A stretch of DNA of 64,000 nucleotides from the NCBI RefSeq assembly GCF_003334355.1, contig NZ_QOWP01000012.1. One strand, written 5' to 3'. Shown one piece after another: positions 8,896 to 30,112 of the stretch. The notes under the pieces were generated by a model that did no database searches, had not been told where the DNA came from, and worked only from the letters and a program-made list of their open reading frames with translations. The translations under genes were made by a program, and so were the position numbers. Within the stretch, counting starts at the first letter, position 1. Each line of letters opens with the position of its first letter. The stretch is from Escherichia coli (GTDB taxonomy: Bacteria > Pseudomonadota > Gammaproteobacteria > Enterobacterales > Enterobacteriaceae).

Positions 8896-10488
8896 TTACT
8901 CGATCCCTTTACTACGCAGGTAATCTTCGTAATTACCGCTAAAGTCGATCACGCGTTCCGGGGTGATTTCCAGAATGCGGGTCGCCAGGGAGCTTACGAA
9001 CTCACGGTCGTGTGAAACAAAGATCAGCGTGCCCTGATACAGTTCCAGTGCCATGTTCAGCGACTCAATGGATTCCATATCCAGGTGGTTGGTCGGTTCG
9101 TCCATGATCAGAATGTTCGGCTTCTGCATCATTAACTTACCAAACAGCATCCGCCCTTTTTCCCCACCGGAAAGCACTTTAGCTGGCTTTTTGATGTCGT
9201 CCTGGCTGAACAGCAAACGACCGAGAATACTGCGTACCGCCTGCTCGTCATCGCCTTCCTGCTTCCACTGGCTCATCCATTCGAACACGGTCAGATCATT
9301 TTCAAACTCATATTCGTGGTCCTGAGCATAGTAACCAATGCGCGCGTTCTCAGACCATTTTACGGTGCCGCTGTCCGGTTGCAGATCGCCCACCAGCGTT
9401 TTCAGCAGCGTTGATTTACCGACGCCGTTGGTACCCAGTACCGCCAGTTTTTCACCCACTTCCAGCAGCAGGTTGAGATTTTTAAACAGCGGACCGTTAT
9501 CAAACCCTTTGGTCAGACCTTCCACTTCCAGCGCGTTACGGAACAGTTTCTTATCCTGTTCAAAACGGATGAACGGGTTCTGACGGCTGGAGGCTTTCAC
9601 CTCTTCCAGTTTGATTTTATCAATCTGGCGCGCGCGCGAAGTTGCCTGGCGAGATTTCGAGGCGTTGGCGCTAAAGCGGCTAACGAAAGATTGCAACTCA
9701 GCAATCTGCGCTTTCTTCTTGGCGTTATCGGCCAGCAGACGTTCACGCGCCTGGGTCGCCGCCGTCATGTACTCATCGTAGTTACCCGGATAAACGCGCA
9801 GCTCGCCGTAATCCAGATCCGCCATGTGGGTACAGACCATGTTAAGGAAGTGACGGTCGTGCGAGATGATGATCATGGTGCTGTCACGCTCGTTCAGCAC
9901 CTGTTCCAGCCAGCGAATGGTGTCGATGTCGAGGTTGTTGGTCGGTTCGTCGAGCAGGAGAATATCCGGATCAGCAAACAGCGCCTGCGCCAGAAGCACA
10001 CGCAGCTTCCAGCCAGGAGCAACTTCACTCATCGGGCCGTAGTGCTGTTCCACTGGAATTCCCACGCCAAGCAACAGTTCACCGGCGCGAGCTTCCGCAG
10101 AGTAACCGTCCATTTCGCCGTATTTAACTTCCAGATCGGCCACTTTATAGCCGTCTTCTTCACTCATTTCCGGCAAAGCATAGATGCGGTCGCGCTCCTG
10201 CTTCACTTCCCACAACTCTTTATGCCCCATGATCACCGTATCCAGCACAGTGAACTCTTCAAAGGCAAACTGATCCTGACGCAGTTTACCAATGCGCTCG
10301 TTGGGATCGAGGGAAACGTTACCCAGCGTCGGCTCAAGGTCGCCGCCGAGGATCTTCATAAAGGTGGATTTACCACTACCGTTCGCGCCAATCAGGCCGT
10401 AACGGTTGCCGCCGCCAAATTTGACGGAAATGTTTTCAAACAACGGCTTACTGCCGAACTGCATGGTGACGTTACTGGAAACTAACAC
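8896..10488 (-). CDS. ybiT: ABC-F family ATPase (two tandem ABC domains, no transmembrane domain)
   Basis: 530 aa ORF with two Walker A motifs ([18 protein letters not shown]) and two LSGGE signature motifs. Confidence 0.9.
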
Positions 10489-20970: not shown

Positions 20971-23196
20971 ATGCGGTGGATCCTGTTCATCCTCTTCTGC
21001 CTGCTGGGCGCACCTGCCCACGCGGTATCCATACCCGGCGTTACAACCACAACGACAACGGACTCAACGACTGAACCGGCCCCGGAACCGGATATCGAAC
21101 AAAAAAAAGCGGCCTATGGCGCACTGGCGGATGTGCTGGATAATGACACCTCGCGTAAAGAGTTGATCGACCAGTTGCGCACCGTTGCCGCTACGCCCCC
21201 TGCTGAACCGGTACCAAAAATAGTGCCGCCGACGCTGGTCGAAGAGCAAACCGTGCTGCAAAAGGTCACCGAAGTCAGCCGCCATTATGGTGAAGCCCTT
21301 TCCGCCCGCTTCGGGCAACTTTATCGCAATATCACCGGCTCCCCGCATAAGCCGTTTAATCCACAAACCTTCAGCAATGCGCTGACCCATTTTTCAATGT
21401 TAGCGGTATTAGTGTTTGGTTTTTACTGGCTGATTCGCCTGTGCGCACTGCCGCTGTATCGCAAAATGGGTCAGTGGGCGCGGCAAAAAAATCGTGAGCG
21501 CAGCAACTGGTTGCAGCTTCCGGCGATGATTATCGGGGCGTTTATTATCGACCTGCTGTTACTGGCCCTGACATTATTTGTCGGCCAGGTATTAAGCGAC
21601 AACCTGAATGCAGGCAGTCGCACCATCGCTTTCCAACAAAGTTTGTTTCTCAACGCCTTTGCCCTCATTGAATTTTTCAAAGCCGTACTACGCCTGATTT
21701 TTTGCCCAAACGTGGCGGAGCTGCGCCCGTTCACGATTCAGGACGAGAGCGCCCGTTACTGGAGTCGTCGCCTGAGCTGGTTAAGCAGTTTGATAGGTTA
21801 TGGCCTGATTGTGGCCGTGCCGATTATCTCTAATCAGGTGAATGTACAGATAGGTGCGCTGGCGAACGTCATCATTATGCTGTGCATGACCGTCTGGGCG
21901 TTGTACCTGATCTTTCGTAATAAAAAAGAGATTACCCAGCATTTGCTCAACTTCGCGGAGCATTCGCTGGCCTTTTTCAGCCTGTTTATCCGCGCCTTTG
22001 CGCTGGTGTGGCACTGGCTGGCAAGCGCCTATTTTATCGTGCTGTTTTTCTTTTCGTTGTTCGATCCGGGCAACAGCCTGAAATTTATGATGGGTGCAAC
22101 GGTGCGCAGCCTGGCGATTATTGGTATCGCAGCGTTTGTTTCCGGTATGTTTTCCCGCTGGCTGGCGAAAACCATCACTCTCTCGCCACATACTCAGCGT
22201 AACTATCCGGAGCTGCAAAAACGGTTGAATGGCTGGCTGTCGGCGGCGCTGAAAACGGCGCGTATTCTGACAGTCTGCGTGGCGGTAATGTTGCTGTTGA
22301 GCGCATGGGGATTGTTCGATTTCTGGAACTGGCTGCAAAACGGCGCGGGGCAGAAAACCGTAGATATCCTGATCCGTATCGCACTCATTCTTTTCTTCTC
22401 GGCGGTTGGCTGGACGGTGCTCGCCAGTTTGATCGAAAACCGGCTGGCTTCGGATATTCATGGCCGCCCGCTACCCAGCGCCCGCACGCGTACCCTGCTT
22501 ACGCTGTTTCGTAACGCGCTGGCGGTGATTATCAGTACCATCACCATCATGATTGTGTTGTCGGAAATCGGCGTCAATATCGCGCCATTGCTGGCAGGTG
22601 CCGGGGCATTAGGTCTGGCTATCTCGTTTGGTTCGCAAACGCTGGTGAAAGATATTATCACCGGGGTATTTATTCAGTTTGAAAACGGCATGAACACTGG
22701 AGATTTGGTGACTATCGGGCCGTTGACCGGCACAGTGGAACGGATGTCGATTCGCTCCGTGGGCGTACGCCAGGATACCGGGGCGTATCACATCATTCCG
22801 TGGTCTTCGATAACCACCTTTGCTAACTTTGTCCGCGGCATTGGTTCGGTGGTGGCAAATTATGATGTTGATCGCCATGAAGATGCTGATAAAGCCAATC
22901 AGGCACTGAAAGATGCGGTAGCGGAATTAATGGAAAACGAAGAAATTCGCGGGCTGATTATTGGTGAACCGAATTTTGCCGGGATTGTCGGCTTAAGCAA
23001 TACCGCGTTTACACTGCGTGTTTCGTTCACCACGCTGCCACTCAAACAGTGGACGGTACGCTTTGCCCTCGACAGCCAGGTGAAAAAACATTTCGACCTG
23101 GCGGGCGTTCGCGCGCCAGTGCAGACTTATCAGGTGCTGCCTGCTCCGGGCGCGACCCCGGCTGAACCGTTACCGCCGGGGGAACCAACGCTTTAA
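20971..23196 (+). CDS. ybiO: Mechanosensitive channel, MscS/MscK family, with signal peptide and long periplasmic N-terminus
   Basis: Translation from [18 protein letters not shown] gives 741 aa; GGAGG RBS upstream; the ORF-track extension is rejected. Confidence 0.85.
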
Positions 23197-24119: not shown

Positions 24120-24394
24120 AGCATTCTCCTTTAAGCAGCGGCGTAAGATACCCGCATAACGCGACAGGGTAAATATCTGGCTGCGTTTATCATTCCCCAA
24201 AACCTTAACATGGCTATGGTTTATGGCAATTCATCATAAAAATCAGCATTATGCATGTCATTGATTTGTCTTATTTTGTAAAAATATATCGTTCAAAAAA
24301 TAAGCACATCTCTGTCAATTTTTTGCGTCATTTGCATCGCGCAGGCGACCTACACTTATCAGGCACTACCCGTTGTATTTATGAGGATGTCATT

Positions 24395-24655
24395 ATGAAA
24401 AAGTGCCTCACACTACTGATTGCCACCGTCCTGAGCGGAATCTCTCTCACGGCTTATGCCGCGCAACCGATGAGTAACCTGGACAGCGGTCAGCTACGGC
24501 CCGCCGGTACCGTTTCGGCAACTGGCGCATCAAACCTAAGCGATCTGGAGGATAAACTGGCAGAAAAAGCGCGCGAACAAGGCGCGAAAGGTTATGTCAT
24601 TAATTCCGCAGGCGGAAATGACCAGATGTTCGGTACTGCAACCATCTACAAATAA
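24395..24655 (+). CDS. mcbA: Small periplasmic DUF1471 protein (BhsA/McbA family)
   Basis: Translation from MKKCLTLLIATVLSGISLTAYA gives 86 aa ending GTATIYK; paralogous to ybiJ in this window. Confidence 0.8.
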   Translation: MKKCLTLLIATVLSGISLTAYAAQPMSNLDSGQLRPAGTVSATGASNLSDLEDKLAEKAREQGAKGYVINSAGGNDQMFGTATIYK

Positions 24656-24788
24656 CCCCACCAACGTAACTGCATTCGCCTCTGGATGCAGTTTTCGTCT
24701 GTTTTGTAATCAAAAAACATCAAATATGAACTCAATGTAAATAAATGTATTTCTTTTTCGCGCAATGGGTGATAGAAAATCGCTCCAA

Positions 24789-24817
24789 GTGATAATGCTT
24801 ATCAAAATTATTATCAC
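24789..24817 (+). promoter_or_regulatory. Fur box upstream of fiu
   Basis: GATAATGCTTATCAAAATTATTATCAC resembles the Fur consensus GATAATGATAATCATTATC; lies about 100 bp upstream of the fiu start. Confidence 0.55.
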
Positions 24818-24919
24818 TTGCACAAACACTATCACGGGATTAACAGTGGCATCGCATCCGCAGAGATGCTTTCTCGTGGCAGTGAAAATTTCAACATATA
24901 AGAAAAAGTCACCTGCAAA

Positions 24920-27202
24920 ATGGAAAACAATCGCAATTTCCCTGCCAGACAATTTCATTCGCTCACGTTCTTTGCCGGTCTTTGTATTGGCATCACGCCT
25001 GTGGCTCAGGCACTCGCCGCCGAAGGGCAAACTAACGCGGATGACACGCTGGTTGTCGAAGCATCAACGCCTTCGCTTTATGCGCCACAACAATCTGCCG
25101 ATCCGAAATTCTCGCGTCCGGTAGCGGATACTACCCGCACGATGACGGTAATTTCTGAACAAGTGATTAAAGATCAGGGCGCAACCAACCTTACCGACGC
25201 GCTCAAAAACGTCCCCGGCGTGGGTGCGTTTTTTGCGGGTGAGAACGGTAACTCCACCACTGGCGACGCCATTTATATGCGTGGTGCCGATACCTCTAAC
25301 AGTATTTATATTGATGGCATTCGCGATATCGGCAGCGTCTCGCGCGACACCTTCAATACCGAGCAGGTCGAAGTGATTAAAGGGCCGTCCGGCACCGACT
25401 ACGGGCGCAGCGCACCGACAGGCTCGATCAATATGATCAGCAAGCAGCCGCGCAATGATTCCGGCATTGACGCCTCCGCCAGTATTGGCAGCGCCTGGTT
25501 CCGCCGCGGCACGCTGGACGTCAATCAGGTCATTGGTGATACCACCGCGGTGCGCCTGAATGTAATGGGCGAAAAAACGCACGATGCCGGACGCGACAAA
25601 GTCAAAAATGAGCGTTACGGCGTCGCCCCTTCTGTCGCTTTTGGCCTTGGTACAGCGAATCTTTTGTATCTTAATTATCTGCATGTCACCCAGCACAACA
25701 CGCCAGACGGCGGCATTCCGACCATCGGTTTGCCGGGCTATTCTGCCCCATCTGCGGGAACGGCGGCCCTGAATCATTCCGGAAAAGTTGATACTCATAA
25801 CTTTTACGGCACGGATTCCGATTACGACGATTCGACCACCGACACCGCCACCATGCGTTTTGAGCACGACATCAACGATAACACCACCATTCGCAATACT
25901 ACCCGTTGGTCGCGCGTAAAGCAGGATTACCTGATGACGGCGATTATGGGCGGGGCGTCGAATATTACTCAGCCCACCAGCGATGTGAATAGCTGGACCT
26001 GGTCACGCACGGCGAATACCAAAGATGTGAGTAATAAAATTCTCACCAACCAGACCAACCTGACCTCGACGTTCTATACCGGTTCTATCGGTCATGATGT
26101 CAGTACCGGCGTGGAATTTACCCGTGAAACGCAGACTAACTACGGCGTTAATCCGGTGACGTTACCCGCGGTAAATATTTATCATCCTGACAGCAGCATT
26201 CATCCCGGCGGCCTGACGCGCAACGGCGCAAACGCCAATGGTCAGACGGATACCTTCGCAATTTACGCCTTTGATACGCTGCAAATCACCCGTGATTTTG
26301 AGCTGAACGGCGGGATCCGTCTGGATAATTATCATACTGAATATGACAGTGCCACCGCCTGCGGCGGCAGCGGACGCGGTGCCATCACCTGCCCAACTGG
26401 TGTGGCAAAAGGTTCTCCGGTCACCACCGTCGACACCGCCAAGTCGGGCAATCTGATGAACTGGAAAGCCGGGGCGCTGTATCACCTGACGGAAAACGGC
26501 AATGTCTATATTAACTATGCCGTTTCCCAGCAGCCTCCGGGCGGCAACAACTTCGCCCTTGCGCAGTCTGGCAGCGGTAACAGTGCCAACCGCACCGATT
26601 TTAAACCGCAAAAAGCCAACACCAGCGAGATTGGCACCAAATGGCAGGTTCTGGATAAACGTCTGTTGCTCACCGCCGCGCTGTTCCGCACTGATATCGA
26701 AAATGAAGTTGAGCAAAATGATGACGGAACTTACTCGCAATACGGTAAGAAACGCGTCGAAGGCTATGAGATATCCGTGGCCGGGAATATCACTCCCGCG
26801 TGGCAGGTGATTGGCGGCTATACCCAGCAAAAAGCAACCATCAAAAACGGCAAAGATGTTGCCCAGGATGGTTCCTCATCGCTGCCGTATACCCCGGAGC
26901 ACGCCTTCACCTTATGGAGCCAATATCAGGCAACCGACGATATCTCTGTTGGCGCGGGCGCACGCTATATCGGCAGTATGCATAAAGGTTCAGACGGCGC
27001 GGTGGGAACGCCAGCGTTTACCGAAGGTTACTGGGTCGCCGATGCCAAACTGGGGTATCGAGTTAATCGCAATCTCGACTTCCAGCTAAACGTTTACAAC
27101 CTGTTTGATACCGATTACGTCGCCTCAATCAACAAGAGCGGCTACCGTTATCACCCGGGCGAGCCAAGAACCTTCTTGCTCACAGCCAATATGCATTTCT
27201 GA
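24920..27202 (+). CDS. fiu: TonB-dependent outer membrane receptor for catecholate siderophores
   Basis: 760 aa ORF with signal peptide, TonB box region and C-terminal aromatic residue (NMHF). Confidence 0.9.
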
Positions 27203-27243
27203 ATCAGATGTGGGGCGCAGGCCCCACTTTTTGGAGAAATTGT

Positions 27244-27921
27244 ATGATGTACCACATTCCCGGCGTGTTATCGCCACAGGACGTCGCTCGTTTTCGCGAA
27301 CAACTGGAACAAGCCGAATGGGTGGATGGACGCGTCACCACCGGCGCACAAGGTGCGCAAGTTAAGAACAATCAACAGGTCGACACCCGCAGCACGTTAT
27401 ACGCCGCCCTGCAAAATGAGGTGCTGAACGCGGTTAACCAACATGCTTTATTCTTTGCCGCGGCCTTGCCGCGTACCCTTTCCACGCCGCTGTTTAATCG
27501 CTATCAGAACAATGAAACCTATGGTTTCCATGTGGATGGCGCAGTACGCAGCCATCCACAAAACGGCTGGATGCGTACTGACCTTTCTGCCACGCTGTTT
27601 TTAAGCGATCCACAAAGCTACGACGGCGGCGAACTGGTCGTTAATGACACCTTCGGACAACATCGGGTAAAACTCCCGGCAGGCGATCTCGTGTTGTATC
27701 CCTCCAGCAGCCTGCATTGCGTGACACCCGTAACCCGCGGCGTACGAGTGGCATCATTTATGTGGATCCAGTCGATGATCCGCGATGATAAAAAGCGCGC
27801 CATGCTGTTTGAACTGGACAACAATATTCAGTCGCTGAAAAGCCGCTACGGCGAAAGTGAAGAGATCCTGTCGCTGCTTAATCTTTATCATAATCTGCTG
27901 CGGGAATGGTCGGAGATCTGA
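27244..27921 (+). CDS. ybiX: PKHD-type Fe(II)/2-oxoglutarate-dependent hydroxylase
   Basis: Translation from [13 protein letters not shown] gives 225 aa with HxD...H iron-binding arrangement; directly downstream of fiu. Confidence 0.85.
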
Positions 27922-27994
27922 TGCTTGAACTGCCCGAGTTCGTCCCTGGATTAGCTACACTTAACTGTACAAGTATTGATATGGGGAGGTCGAT

Positions 27995-28195
27995 ATGGCA
28001 TCCGGTTGGGCTAACGATGACGCCGTCAACGAACAGATCAACAGTACAATTGAAGATGCGATTGCCCACGCTCGGGGTGAAATTCCGCGCGGCGAAAGCC
28101 TGGATGAATGTGAAGAGTGCGGTGCCCCCATCCCGCAGGCCCGTCGGGAAGCCATTCCTGGCGTGCGCTTATGTATTCATTGTCAGCAGGAGTAA
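27995..28195 (+). CDS. ybiI: DksA/TraR-type C4 zinc-finger protein, 66 aa as encoded here (expected 88 aa)
   Basis: CEECGAPIPQARREAIPGVRLCIHCQ zinc finger. An in-frame TAA at 28193 to 28195 is followed by 21 in-frame sense codons to a second TAA at 28259 to 28261, which would give 88 codons. Confidence 0.6.
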   Translation: MASGWANDDAVNEQINSTIEDAIAHARGEIPRGESLDECEECGAPIPQARREAIPGVRLCIHCQQE

Positions 28196-28525
28196 GATTT
28201 ACAAAAACCAGCTTATACAGGATATAATCGCAGAGGTTCGAAAGACAGCCAGTTACGTTAACTACAACTGGCGAGATGCATAGCGAGTATAATTTGTATT
28301 TTGCGTGTCATTCCGTGCCTTTAACGCTGCTGTGACTGCCACGCGGTATAAAACAAGTTCATAAGTACAACAAATAAATGGTTTATCAGTAGGTTAGATA
28401 TCAATCAATTTATTTGAACAAGGCGGTCAATTCTCTTCGATTTTATCTCTCGTAAAAAAACGTGATACTCATCACATCGACGAAACAACGTCACTTATAC
28501 AAAAATCACCTGCGAGAGATTAATT

Positions 28526-28786
28526 ATGAAAACTATCAATACTGTTGTTGCTGCTATGGCTCTTTCAACTCTGTCATTTGGCGTGTTCGCGGCGGAACCG
28601 GTAACGGCATCCCAGGCACAGAACATGAATAAAATCGGCGTGGTTTCTGCCGATGGCGCATCCACCCTCGATGCCCTGGAAGCGAAACTGGCTGAGAAAG
28701 CCGCGGCAGCCGGTGCCAGTGGATACAGCATCACTTCCGCCACCAACAACAATAAATTAAGCGGTACTGCGGTAATTTATAAGTAA
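28526..28786 (+). CDS. ybiJ: Small periplasmic DUF1471 protein
   Basis: 86 aa ORF with signal peptide ending GTAVIYK; paralog of mcbA. Confidence 0.85.
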   Translation: MKTINTVVAAMALSTLSFGVFAAEPVTASQAQNMNKIGVVSADGASTLDALEAKLAEKAAAAGASGYSITSATNNNKLSGTAVIYK

Positions 28787-28789
28787 TTC

Positions 28790-28915
28790 GTAGGACGGAT
28801 AAGGCGTTTACGCCGCATCCGGCAACAGATGCCTGATGCGACGCTACCGCGTCTTATCAGGCCTACAAAATCCGAACCGTTGGACGGATCAGGCGTTTAC
28901 GCTACGTCCAGCACA
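28790..28915. repeat. REP/BIME repeat cluster (three REP units)
   Basis: GGACGGATAAGGCGTTTACGCCGCATCCGGC, GCCTGATGCGACGCTACCGCGTCTTATCAGGCCTAC and GGACGGATCAGGCGTTTACGCTACGTCC units. Confidence 0.7.
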
Positions 28916-29014
28916 AGTATTTCCCTGTCTGTTTGCCGACAGACGCATATGCTCTAACCCTCATTGATCCTATGTTACCCTTGTTTGCCCGTCCGCCACT
29001 GGACGGGCTTTTTT

Positions 29015-30112
<1,098 letters not shown>

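Follow-up and report, generated by a model that had tools for sequence, protein, structure and literature searches.

Here, we examined the interval between rlmF and ybiB in a 64-kb window of Escherichia coli DNA, where mcbA and ybiJ, two genes for 86-residue proteins of the DUF1471 family, flank fiu, ybiX, and ybiI. The window denotes the whole 64,000-nucleotide (nt) stretch that was analyzed, and all coordinates are those of this stretch. Our analysis suggests that the rlmF-ybiB interval is made up of separate transcription units, in which an old pair of DUF1471 neighbors encloses a variable fiu-ybiX cassette, and that the bracketing of iron genes by the pair is a by-product; we give this reading a probability of roughly 80%. 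According to it, mcbA (24395..24655, + strand) would form a transcription unit of its own, with its own promoter and an intrinsic terminator, and fiu (24920..27202, +) and ybiX (27244..27921, +) would constitute a Fur-repressed pair encoding a catecholate receptor and an Fe(II)/2-oxoglutarate hydroxylase. In E. coli, ybiI (27995..28195, +) would be co-expressed with that pair, most likely via read-through of a 73-nt spacer, and would also have its own RNA polymerase binding in vitro. Finally, ybiJ (28526..28786, +) would be driven by its own YhaJ-activated promoter and yield ZbiJ, a small RNA of its 3′ untranslated region (UTR). Under the same reading, mcbA and ybiJ are presumably ancient neighboring genes for small secreted envelope-stress proteins, with orthologues that appear in tandem or parted by ybiI alone in many Enterobacteriaceae. 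The 3.2-kb fiu-ybiX cassette would fill the mcbA-ybiI spacer in some lineages and be missing in others, and neither DUF1471 gene would be wired to Fur.

To compare the locus across Enterobacteriaceae, we sampled 80 loci from different species with 10-kb flanks, using RlmF as a neutral anchor, and labelled the open reading frames (ORFs) by BLASTP and a DUF1471 hidden Markov model. Orthology followed position: the rlmF-proximal DUF1471 protein corresponds to McbA and the distal one to YbiJ, with 58-87% identity to the cognate E. coli protein vs. 40-49% to the other. The full order mcbA-fiu-ybiX-ybiI-ybiJ was found in 21 species. Nineteen others, including E. albertii, Citrobacter amalonaticus, C. 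sedlakii, C. werkmanii, Enterobacter, Trabulsiella, and Yokenella, have mcbA-ybiI-ybiJ without fiu or ybiX, and mcbA and ybiJ are adjacent, without ybiI, in five species of Atlantibacter and Cedecea. Another 20 species, among them Salmonella, Kosakonia, and Phytobacter, carry only ybiI-ybiJ; fiu-ybiX-ybiI-ybiJ occurs without mcbA in three species of the Klebsiella oxytoca group, and fiu-ybiX-ybiJ, with or without a McbA-like gene, in four Kluyvera loci. Since the DUF1471 pair occurs without fiu-ybiX (19 + 5 species), it is older than the cassette and independent of it. The initial annotation had proposed a local duplication around an iron-regulated unit; with the module lacking from the pair in 24 species, that description gives way to an older pair with a variable cassette inside it. 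Across the 80 species, fiu and ybiX were either both present or both absent, and fiu was never found without ybiX. The gene ybiI accompanies ybiJ irrespective of fiu-ybiX, occurring without the cassette in about 40 species, and fiu-ybiX occurs without ybiI in the four Kluyvera loci. The evolutionary unit is fiu-ybiX, not fiu-ybiX-ybiI. Treating the three genes as one unit, as had been done initially, therefore fails for co-occurrence over the 80 species and is defensible for expression, in E. coli only, where fiu, ybiX, and ybiI are found together in the Fur-1 iModulon (PMC10164565). As for the remaining genes of the interval, mcbA is absent in about 30 of the 80 species, ybiJ is nearly always kept, and the presence of hcxB is variable.

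The variable cassette was delimited by its absence in E. albertii. In a blastn comparison of the E. albertii locus (L011) with the window, homology ends at 24698, just past the mcbA terminator, and resumes at 27905, which places the cassette at 24699..27904 and includes in it the Fur box, fiu, and ybiX minus its last 17 nt. Those final 17 nt of ybiX are retained in E. albertii as a deletion scar, and the cassette was thus present in the Escherichia ancestor. Between genera, Fiu is 82-89% and YbiX 80-88% identical, values that track those of the flanking RlmF, YbiO, and YbiB; this parallel divergence fits vertical descent with repeated loss, and we infer an ancestral cassette that was lost repeatedly.

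Regulatory signals were then mapped onto the window. Between mcbA and fiu, RNA folding located an intrinsic terminator (24660..24706, +) consisting of a 10-bp stem followed by UUUUCGUCUGUUUUG; its fold (-15.9 kcal/mol, z = -3.9) was matched in stability by none of 200 shuffles. A Fur box before fiu had been claimed, and consensus matches reveal a Fur-box array at 24785..24821 (no strand assigned) that overlaps the fiu promoter, where a promoter scan predicted a site at 24769-24796 with a -10-like GATAAT at 24791-24796. The array comprises four overlapping 19-mers in a 6-nt register with 4-6 mismatches to the Fur consensus, the best having 4, and no match with three or fewer mismatches was found anywhere in the window. 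Among the sampled loci, Fur-like sites with 2-5 mismatches lie upstream of 28 of 33 fiu ORF matches (29 loci, some fiu genes being split into fragments), relative to a background mode of 8-9 mismatches in random 250-nt windows, and the array region is conserved solely in loci with fiu. For ybiI, ybiJ, and mcbA, Fur-like upstream sites in the window and in orthologues have at best 6-10 mismatches, which equals background. The initial annotation had raised the question of whether ybiJ has its own Fur box, and none above background was found for it in the window or in 73 ybiJ orthologues. One Fur-like site before ybiI (27877-27895, 5 mismatches) was dropped: it lies inside the ybiX coding sequence, and about 5% of random 250-nt windows contain a site that scores as well. 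Of the four other Escherichia loci, three show 6 mismatches at this site, other genera show 7-9, and the best site in locus L007 is elsewhere.

Previous studies have described fiu-ybiX as a Fur target operon (PMC4676285) and have listed fiu, ybiX, and ybiI among serum-induced genes (PMC4145685); neither the latter paper nor the iModulon study (PMC10164565) names ybiJ or mcbA in its main text. The 73-nt ybiX-ybiI spacer contains no stable structure (z = +0.74) and no terminator-like site, and read-through from fiu-ybiX into ybiI across this terminator-less spacer is the most likely cause of the co-expression of ybiI with that pair. Within the documented fiu-ybiX operon (PMC4676285), the spacer between the two genes holds a GC-rich hairpin followed by U5 (27210..27227, +), which was detected by a terminator-like scan and folds at -17.7 kcal/mol (z = -3.3). 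This hairpin could be a partial terminator or a stabilizing 3′ structure of a fiu-only transcript.

YhaJ, a regulator of the LysR type, binds to the promoter of ybiJ and activates it in response to hydroquinone and dinitrotoluene (PMC5031710). The promoter mutations reported in that study, C120T and T112C/T111C, coincide exactly with a TCA-N7-TGA motif at 28405..28417 (+), TCAATTTATTTGA, 120 nt before the ATG, and this motif was annotated as the YhaJ box. A YhaJ box is found at -110 to -136 in at least 39 of 73 ybiJ orthologues, from Escherichia to Pantoea and including Salmonella, and the proximal promoter (~120-140 nt) is conserved in 72 loci, with or without the cassette. At the other end of the gene, ZbiJ (28920..29016, +) was placed by its offset from ybiJ in K-12 (b4814, 837435-837531); a stem at 28987-29008 followed by U8 provides the strong terminator that ends the ybiJ/ZbiJ unit. 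ZbiJ was found by RNA interaction by ligation and sequencing (RIL-seq) and, under the name asYbiE, has also been reported to repress the translation of rpoS (PMC8175672, PMC8545128). Its 3′ two-thirds are kept right after ybiJ in 70 of the 80 loci, as in L002, where the copy lies at 9304-9403. An Rfam scan for ZbiJ returned no model that recognizes it, yielding only a match to the REP-type (repetitive extragenic palindromic) naRNA4 family and a sub-threshold chance match. The former is a repeat in the ybiJ 3′ region (28793..28863, no strand assigned; RF02564, 78.4 bits vs. a gathering score of 59.5) that lies between the ybiJ stop codon and ZbiJ; most other genera lack this repeat, and there the homology to ZbiJ begins near the ybiJ stop codon. 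Antisense to ZbiJ is ybiE (28889..28948, -), a gene for a 19-residue protein known from the RefSeq annotation of matching genomes and from PMC8545128. A paralogue of ybiJ, bhsA, likewise has an annotated 3′UTR small RNA (BhsB).

The paralogy of McbA and YbiJ is well founded at the protein level. BLASTP aligned them end to end and ungapped with 40/86 identities (47%, E = 7e-16), of which 8/22 fall in the signal peptide, 32/64 (50%) in the mature protein, and 30/53 in the Pfam domain. Because 32 of the 64 mature residues are identical, the similarity extends beyond the signal peptide, and paralogy thus withstood the pairwise alignment, where low identity outside the signal peptide would have counted against it. 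Both proteins have 86 residues, as had been noted, and end in GTATIYK (McbA) and GTAVIYK (YbiJ). The GTAxIYK C-terminus is a signature of the DUF1471 family; BhsA ends in GTAVIYK and YahO has GTANIYK. Residues 34-86 of each protein match positions 1-55 of the 55-position PF07338 model (YdgH/BhsA/McbA-like), with E = 3e-19 for McbA and 1.2e-17 for YbiJ. McbA (also named ybiM) scored 174.5 bits on NCBIfam NF040473 and YbiJ 173.1 bits on NF007611, each against a cut-off of 110, and the next-best model for both was BhsA (101.5 and 116.2 bits, respectively). Sec-type signal peptides are predicted for both, as initially proposed, from a basic start, a hydrophobic core, and an AxA/VxA motif before residue 23. 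They were judged by reading the sequences: McbA starts with MKK, followed by a hydrophobic core and TAYA|A (residues 1-22), and YbiJ with MK, a hydrophobic core, and VFA|A. In agreement with this, the Sec signal of YbiJ and its paralogy to McbA have been stated (bioRxiv 10.1101/2025.02.11.637708). The PDB chains 2noc_A and 2ma4_A ("Putative periplasmic protein") were sequence matches only (E = 3e-5 to 4e-4); solved DUF1471 structures (SrfN, YahO, and YdgH domains) have a mixed α+β fold, according to PMC4092069. No DUF1471 ORF other than mcbA and ybiJ was found in the 64-kb window. In K-12, two DUF1471 pairs lie no more than 5 kb apart (mcbA/ybiJ and yjfN/bsmA) vs. 0.08 expected (P about 0.003, for nine DUF1471 loci in 4.64 Mb), and the clustering of mcbA and ybiJ exceeds chance.

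To place the pair within its family, we used seven further DUF1471 genes of K-12 (bhsA, yjfN, bsmA, yjfY, yhcN, ydgH, and yahO). McbA and YbiJ are 46.5% identical (72.0 bits), McbA and BhsA 43.0% (69.7 bits), YbiJ and BhsA 46.5% (73.6 bits), and YbiJ and YhcN 44.8% (64.7 bits). With models of each protein, that of McbA gave YbiJ 80.6 and BhsA 77.7 bits, that of YbiJ gave McbA 74.3 and BhsA 70.5, and the broader BhsA model was the highest-scoring paralogue model for McbA (101.5) and YbiJ (116.2) alike. By these sequence comparisons, McbA, YbiJ, and BhsA are a trio of about equal similarity. The identity of mcbA and ybiJ at third-codon positions is 29%, and the same codon is used at 14 of the 40 identical residues; since third-codon positions are saturated, the duplication is ancient. 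A neighbor-joining tree (200 bootstrap replicates) was built from 51 McbA-type and 73 YbiJ-type sequences and the K-12 paralogues; the homology search with McbA had returned close McbA orthologues only, and the tree hence contains no BhsA diversity. McbA sequences formed a clade in 157/200 replicates, and mcbA grouped with ybiJ in 66/200 and with BhsA in 26/200, while ybiJ grouped with BhsA in 21/200. Orthologues of mcbA and ybiJ stand in same-strand tandem, 366-406 nt apart, in Atlantibacter, Cedecea, and a record named Citrobacter freundii M-21. PMC4092069 describes the DUF1471 family as expanded by duplication, with adjacent pairs, and Salmonella as being without McbA. A tandem-duplication origin of mcbA/ybiJ is plausible from this synteny. 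McbA orthologues outside Escherichia are 56-78% identical to the E. coli protein and the YbiJ proteins of the same species mostly 74-87%, so that McbA is the faster-diverging of the two.

Several observations weigh against our reading or parts of it. For the cassette, tblastn found no remnants of fiu or ybiX in cassette-less loci other than that of E. albertii, and the direction of the event, a loss, is shown for E. albertii only. For the pair, the best paralogue match of K-12 YbiJ is BhsA rather than McbA (73.6 vs. 72.0 bits), the bootstrap support for mcbA+ybiJ is low (66/200), and McbA orthologues of other genera score 55-69 bits against BhsA and 40-53 against YbiJ. Because BhsA is equally similar to each of them, a direct mcbA/ybiJ split cannot be demonstrated, and a sister relationship of McbA and YbiJ is not demonstrated. 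For the proposed read-through, genomic SELEX (systematic evolution of ligands by exponential enrichment) placed a site for the sigma-S RNA polymerase holoenzyme in the ybiX-ybiI spacer in vitro (PMC5493296). For the absence of an iron link, RNA from the ybiJ-ybiC intergenic region was chimeric with fepA mRNA under iron starvation in RIL-seq data (PMC11979758), which is the sole hint of such a link for the ybiJ unit. Two alternative histories draw on these points. It is conceivable, though we consider it doubtful, that fiu-ybiX is not ancestral here and was inserted, possibly repeatedly by intergeneric homologous exchange, into a spacer that acts as a hot spot for cargo. The patchy distribution of fiu-ybiX within Citrobacter, Enterobacter, and Escherichia would fit such insertions, as would the unrelated cargo that occupies the rlmF-ybiB interval in other genera and the remnant-free loci; however, junctions and gene order are identical in every fiu-ybiX carrier, Fiu and YbiX have diverged in parallel with the flanking genes, and the ybiX 3′ remnant marks a loss in the E. 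albertii lineage. Similarly tentative is the idea that mcbA is a fast-evolving bhsA-like copy that landed beside ybiI-ybiJ, which would make the adjacency secondary, mcbA and ybiJ not being direct tandem duplicates. The higher scores of McbA orthologues against BhsA point this way, as do the scores of the McbA protein on the BhsA and YbiJ models (101.5 vs. 74.3), its faster evolution, and the absence of mcbA from at least 20 species that retain ybiI-ybiJ, including Salmonella (for which see also PMC4092069). Conversely, fixed-model scores put the local paralogue slightly above BhsA in both directions (80.6 vs. 77.7 and 74.3 vs. 70.5), the neighbor-joining replicates favor mcbA+ybiJ over mcbA+BhsA, two paralogues are unlikely to lie within 5 kb of each other by chance, and the same-strand adjacency in Atlantibacter and Cedecea is a classic trace of tandem duplication.

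The arrangement could also be functional: a local duplication would have left the iron module between two DUF1471 copies, and the two proteins would work, or be regulated, together with fiu-ybiX-ybiI. In favor of this, mcbA and ybiJ do lie on either side of the module in E. coli and in 21 of the 80 species, co-expression links ybiI to fiu-ybiX, and RNA of the ZbiJ region forms the above chimeras with fepA mRNA under iron starvation (PMC11979758). This explanation is nevertheless very improbable and has already been largely refuted by synteny, since 24 species have the DUF1471 pair but no module and five have the module but no mcbA. In addition, neither mcbA nor ybiJ has a Fur box in any lineage examined, the terminator cuts mcbA off from fiu, ybiJ is under its own YhaJ-controlled promoter, and the Fur-regulon papers noted above (PMC10164565, PMC4145685) pass over both genes in their main text. 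A combined scenario is somewhat less remote, though still unlikely: the locus of an old pair, with a spacer in which cargo lands and is lost, where the cassette draws ybiI into the iron regulon by read-through and ZbiJ feeds back on iron uptake by pairing with fepA mRNA. If this were true, the neighborhood would have gained a regulatory meaning, although it did not arise for one. Our preferred reading remains that of separate transcription units in which the old pair encloses a variable cassette.

The unrelated cargo in the rlmF-ybiB interval of other genera was located at L057 1900-9600, L043 1600-10000, L051 2900-8400, L037 5200-8650, and L070 5200-8700. It comprises, for example, an ATP-binding cassette (ABC) transporter with an amidohydrolase-like gene, large uncharacterised ORFs that fill an 8-kb block, a series of repeated ORFs that are paralogous to one another, and an adenine-deaminase-like gene accompanied by a permease.

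Reference genomes for the layout were RefSeq-annotated E. coli genomes, including K-12 and strain 214-4. The segment from 24200 to 29000 is 99.9% identical to the E. coli chromosome and was matched by all 5426 of 5426 complete genomes, with at least 80% of the stretch covered in 5417. K-12 differs from the window at nine sites over 12 kb, and no genome in the E. coli genome collection was identical to the window across the region. The RefSeq annotation of the best match and of K-12 gives the order ybiO, rlmF (-), mcbA, fiu, ybiX, ybiI, ybiJ (+), ybiE (-), hcxB (-), and ybiB (-). The flanking of fiu, ybiX, and ybiI by mcbA and ybiJ, as described in the initial annotation, is borne out by ORFs lying at exactly the positions given above and by the RefSeq annotation, and its gene identities and its view that all the genes are known agree with that annotation and with NCBIfam cut-offs being exceeded. 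Thus, Fiu is a TonB-dependent catecholate siderophore receptor of 760 residues (NF007349, 1503 bits vs. a cut-off of 686), YbiX is a PKHD-type Fe(II)/2-oxoglutarate hydroxylase of the PiuC/CciO family with 225 residues (NF003972, 519.8 bits vs. 399), and YbiI is a DksA/TraR-type C4 zinc-finger protein (NF008243).

The window differs from the reference genomes in ybiI, where a TAA at 28193 replaces the AAA of K-12 and strain 214-4 (K67*) and shortens the protein from 88 to 66 residues; the reference frame continues to 28261. The truncated protein retains all four zinc-finger cysteines and scored 117.9 bits over profile positions 1-66 of the 88 in NF008243. The stop was present in 0 of 4412 E. 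coli genomes matching the 61-mer around it, and an exact match to the 61-mer was not found; either a mutation private to the strain or a sequencing error may account for it. A second change in ybiI, R25H, is at 28068. Further differences from both K-12 and the closest genome are located at 22770 (ybiO), 24824 (3 nt past the Fur-box array), and 25662 (Fiu R248 to L).

Members of the DUF1471/YhcN/BhsA-McbA family (PF07338; Eletsky et al., 2014, PMC4092069) are alike in a length of ~86-91 residues, a Sec signal peptide, and a C-terminus of the G-T-A-x-I-Y-K type. The family has several paralogues per genome, some of them adjacent (yjfN/bsmA, and yhcN/ycfR-like genes in Salmonella), and has been linked to stress and biofilm. 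Its listed members include McbA and YbiJ, which differ from the family in no protein-level respect. The adjacent pairs named in the passages of that paper considered here (yjfN/yjfO and yhcN/ycfR-like) do not include the mcbA/ybiJ neighborhood or its tandem state in other genera. The nearest paralogue of both genes, bhsA (43-47% identity), resembles ybiJ in having a 3′UTR small RNA (BhsB, like ZbiJ), but lies 330 kb away, beside comR, without adjoining iron genes. Fiu-YbiX, for its part, is like PiuA-PiuC and CciT-CciO an adjacent, co-conserved, Fur-repressed pair of a receptor and a 2-oxoglutarate/Fe(II) dioxygenase (bioRxiv 10.1101/2024.10.16.618771; PMC4676285). Such receptor-dioxygenase pairs are co-conserved and Fur-regulated across Proteobacteria (bioRxiv 10.1101/2024.10.16.618771). 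The E. coli pair shows no difference from them, and ybiI falls outside the co-conserved pair though it is next to it in E. coli.

Publications or annotations already cover the genes and their family, Fur control of fiu-ybiX, YhaJ control of ybiJ, and ZbiJ, and for this reason the locus itself matters little. What the comparison offers is less a discovery than a tidy correction: the unit that is mobile or lost is fiu-ybiX alone, in agreement with the receptor-dioxygenase pair known across Proteobacteria. The Fur-linked expression of ybiI in E. coli may accordingly be a positional side effect, which is worth recalling wherever ybiI is listed as an "iron" gene.

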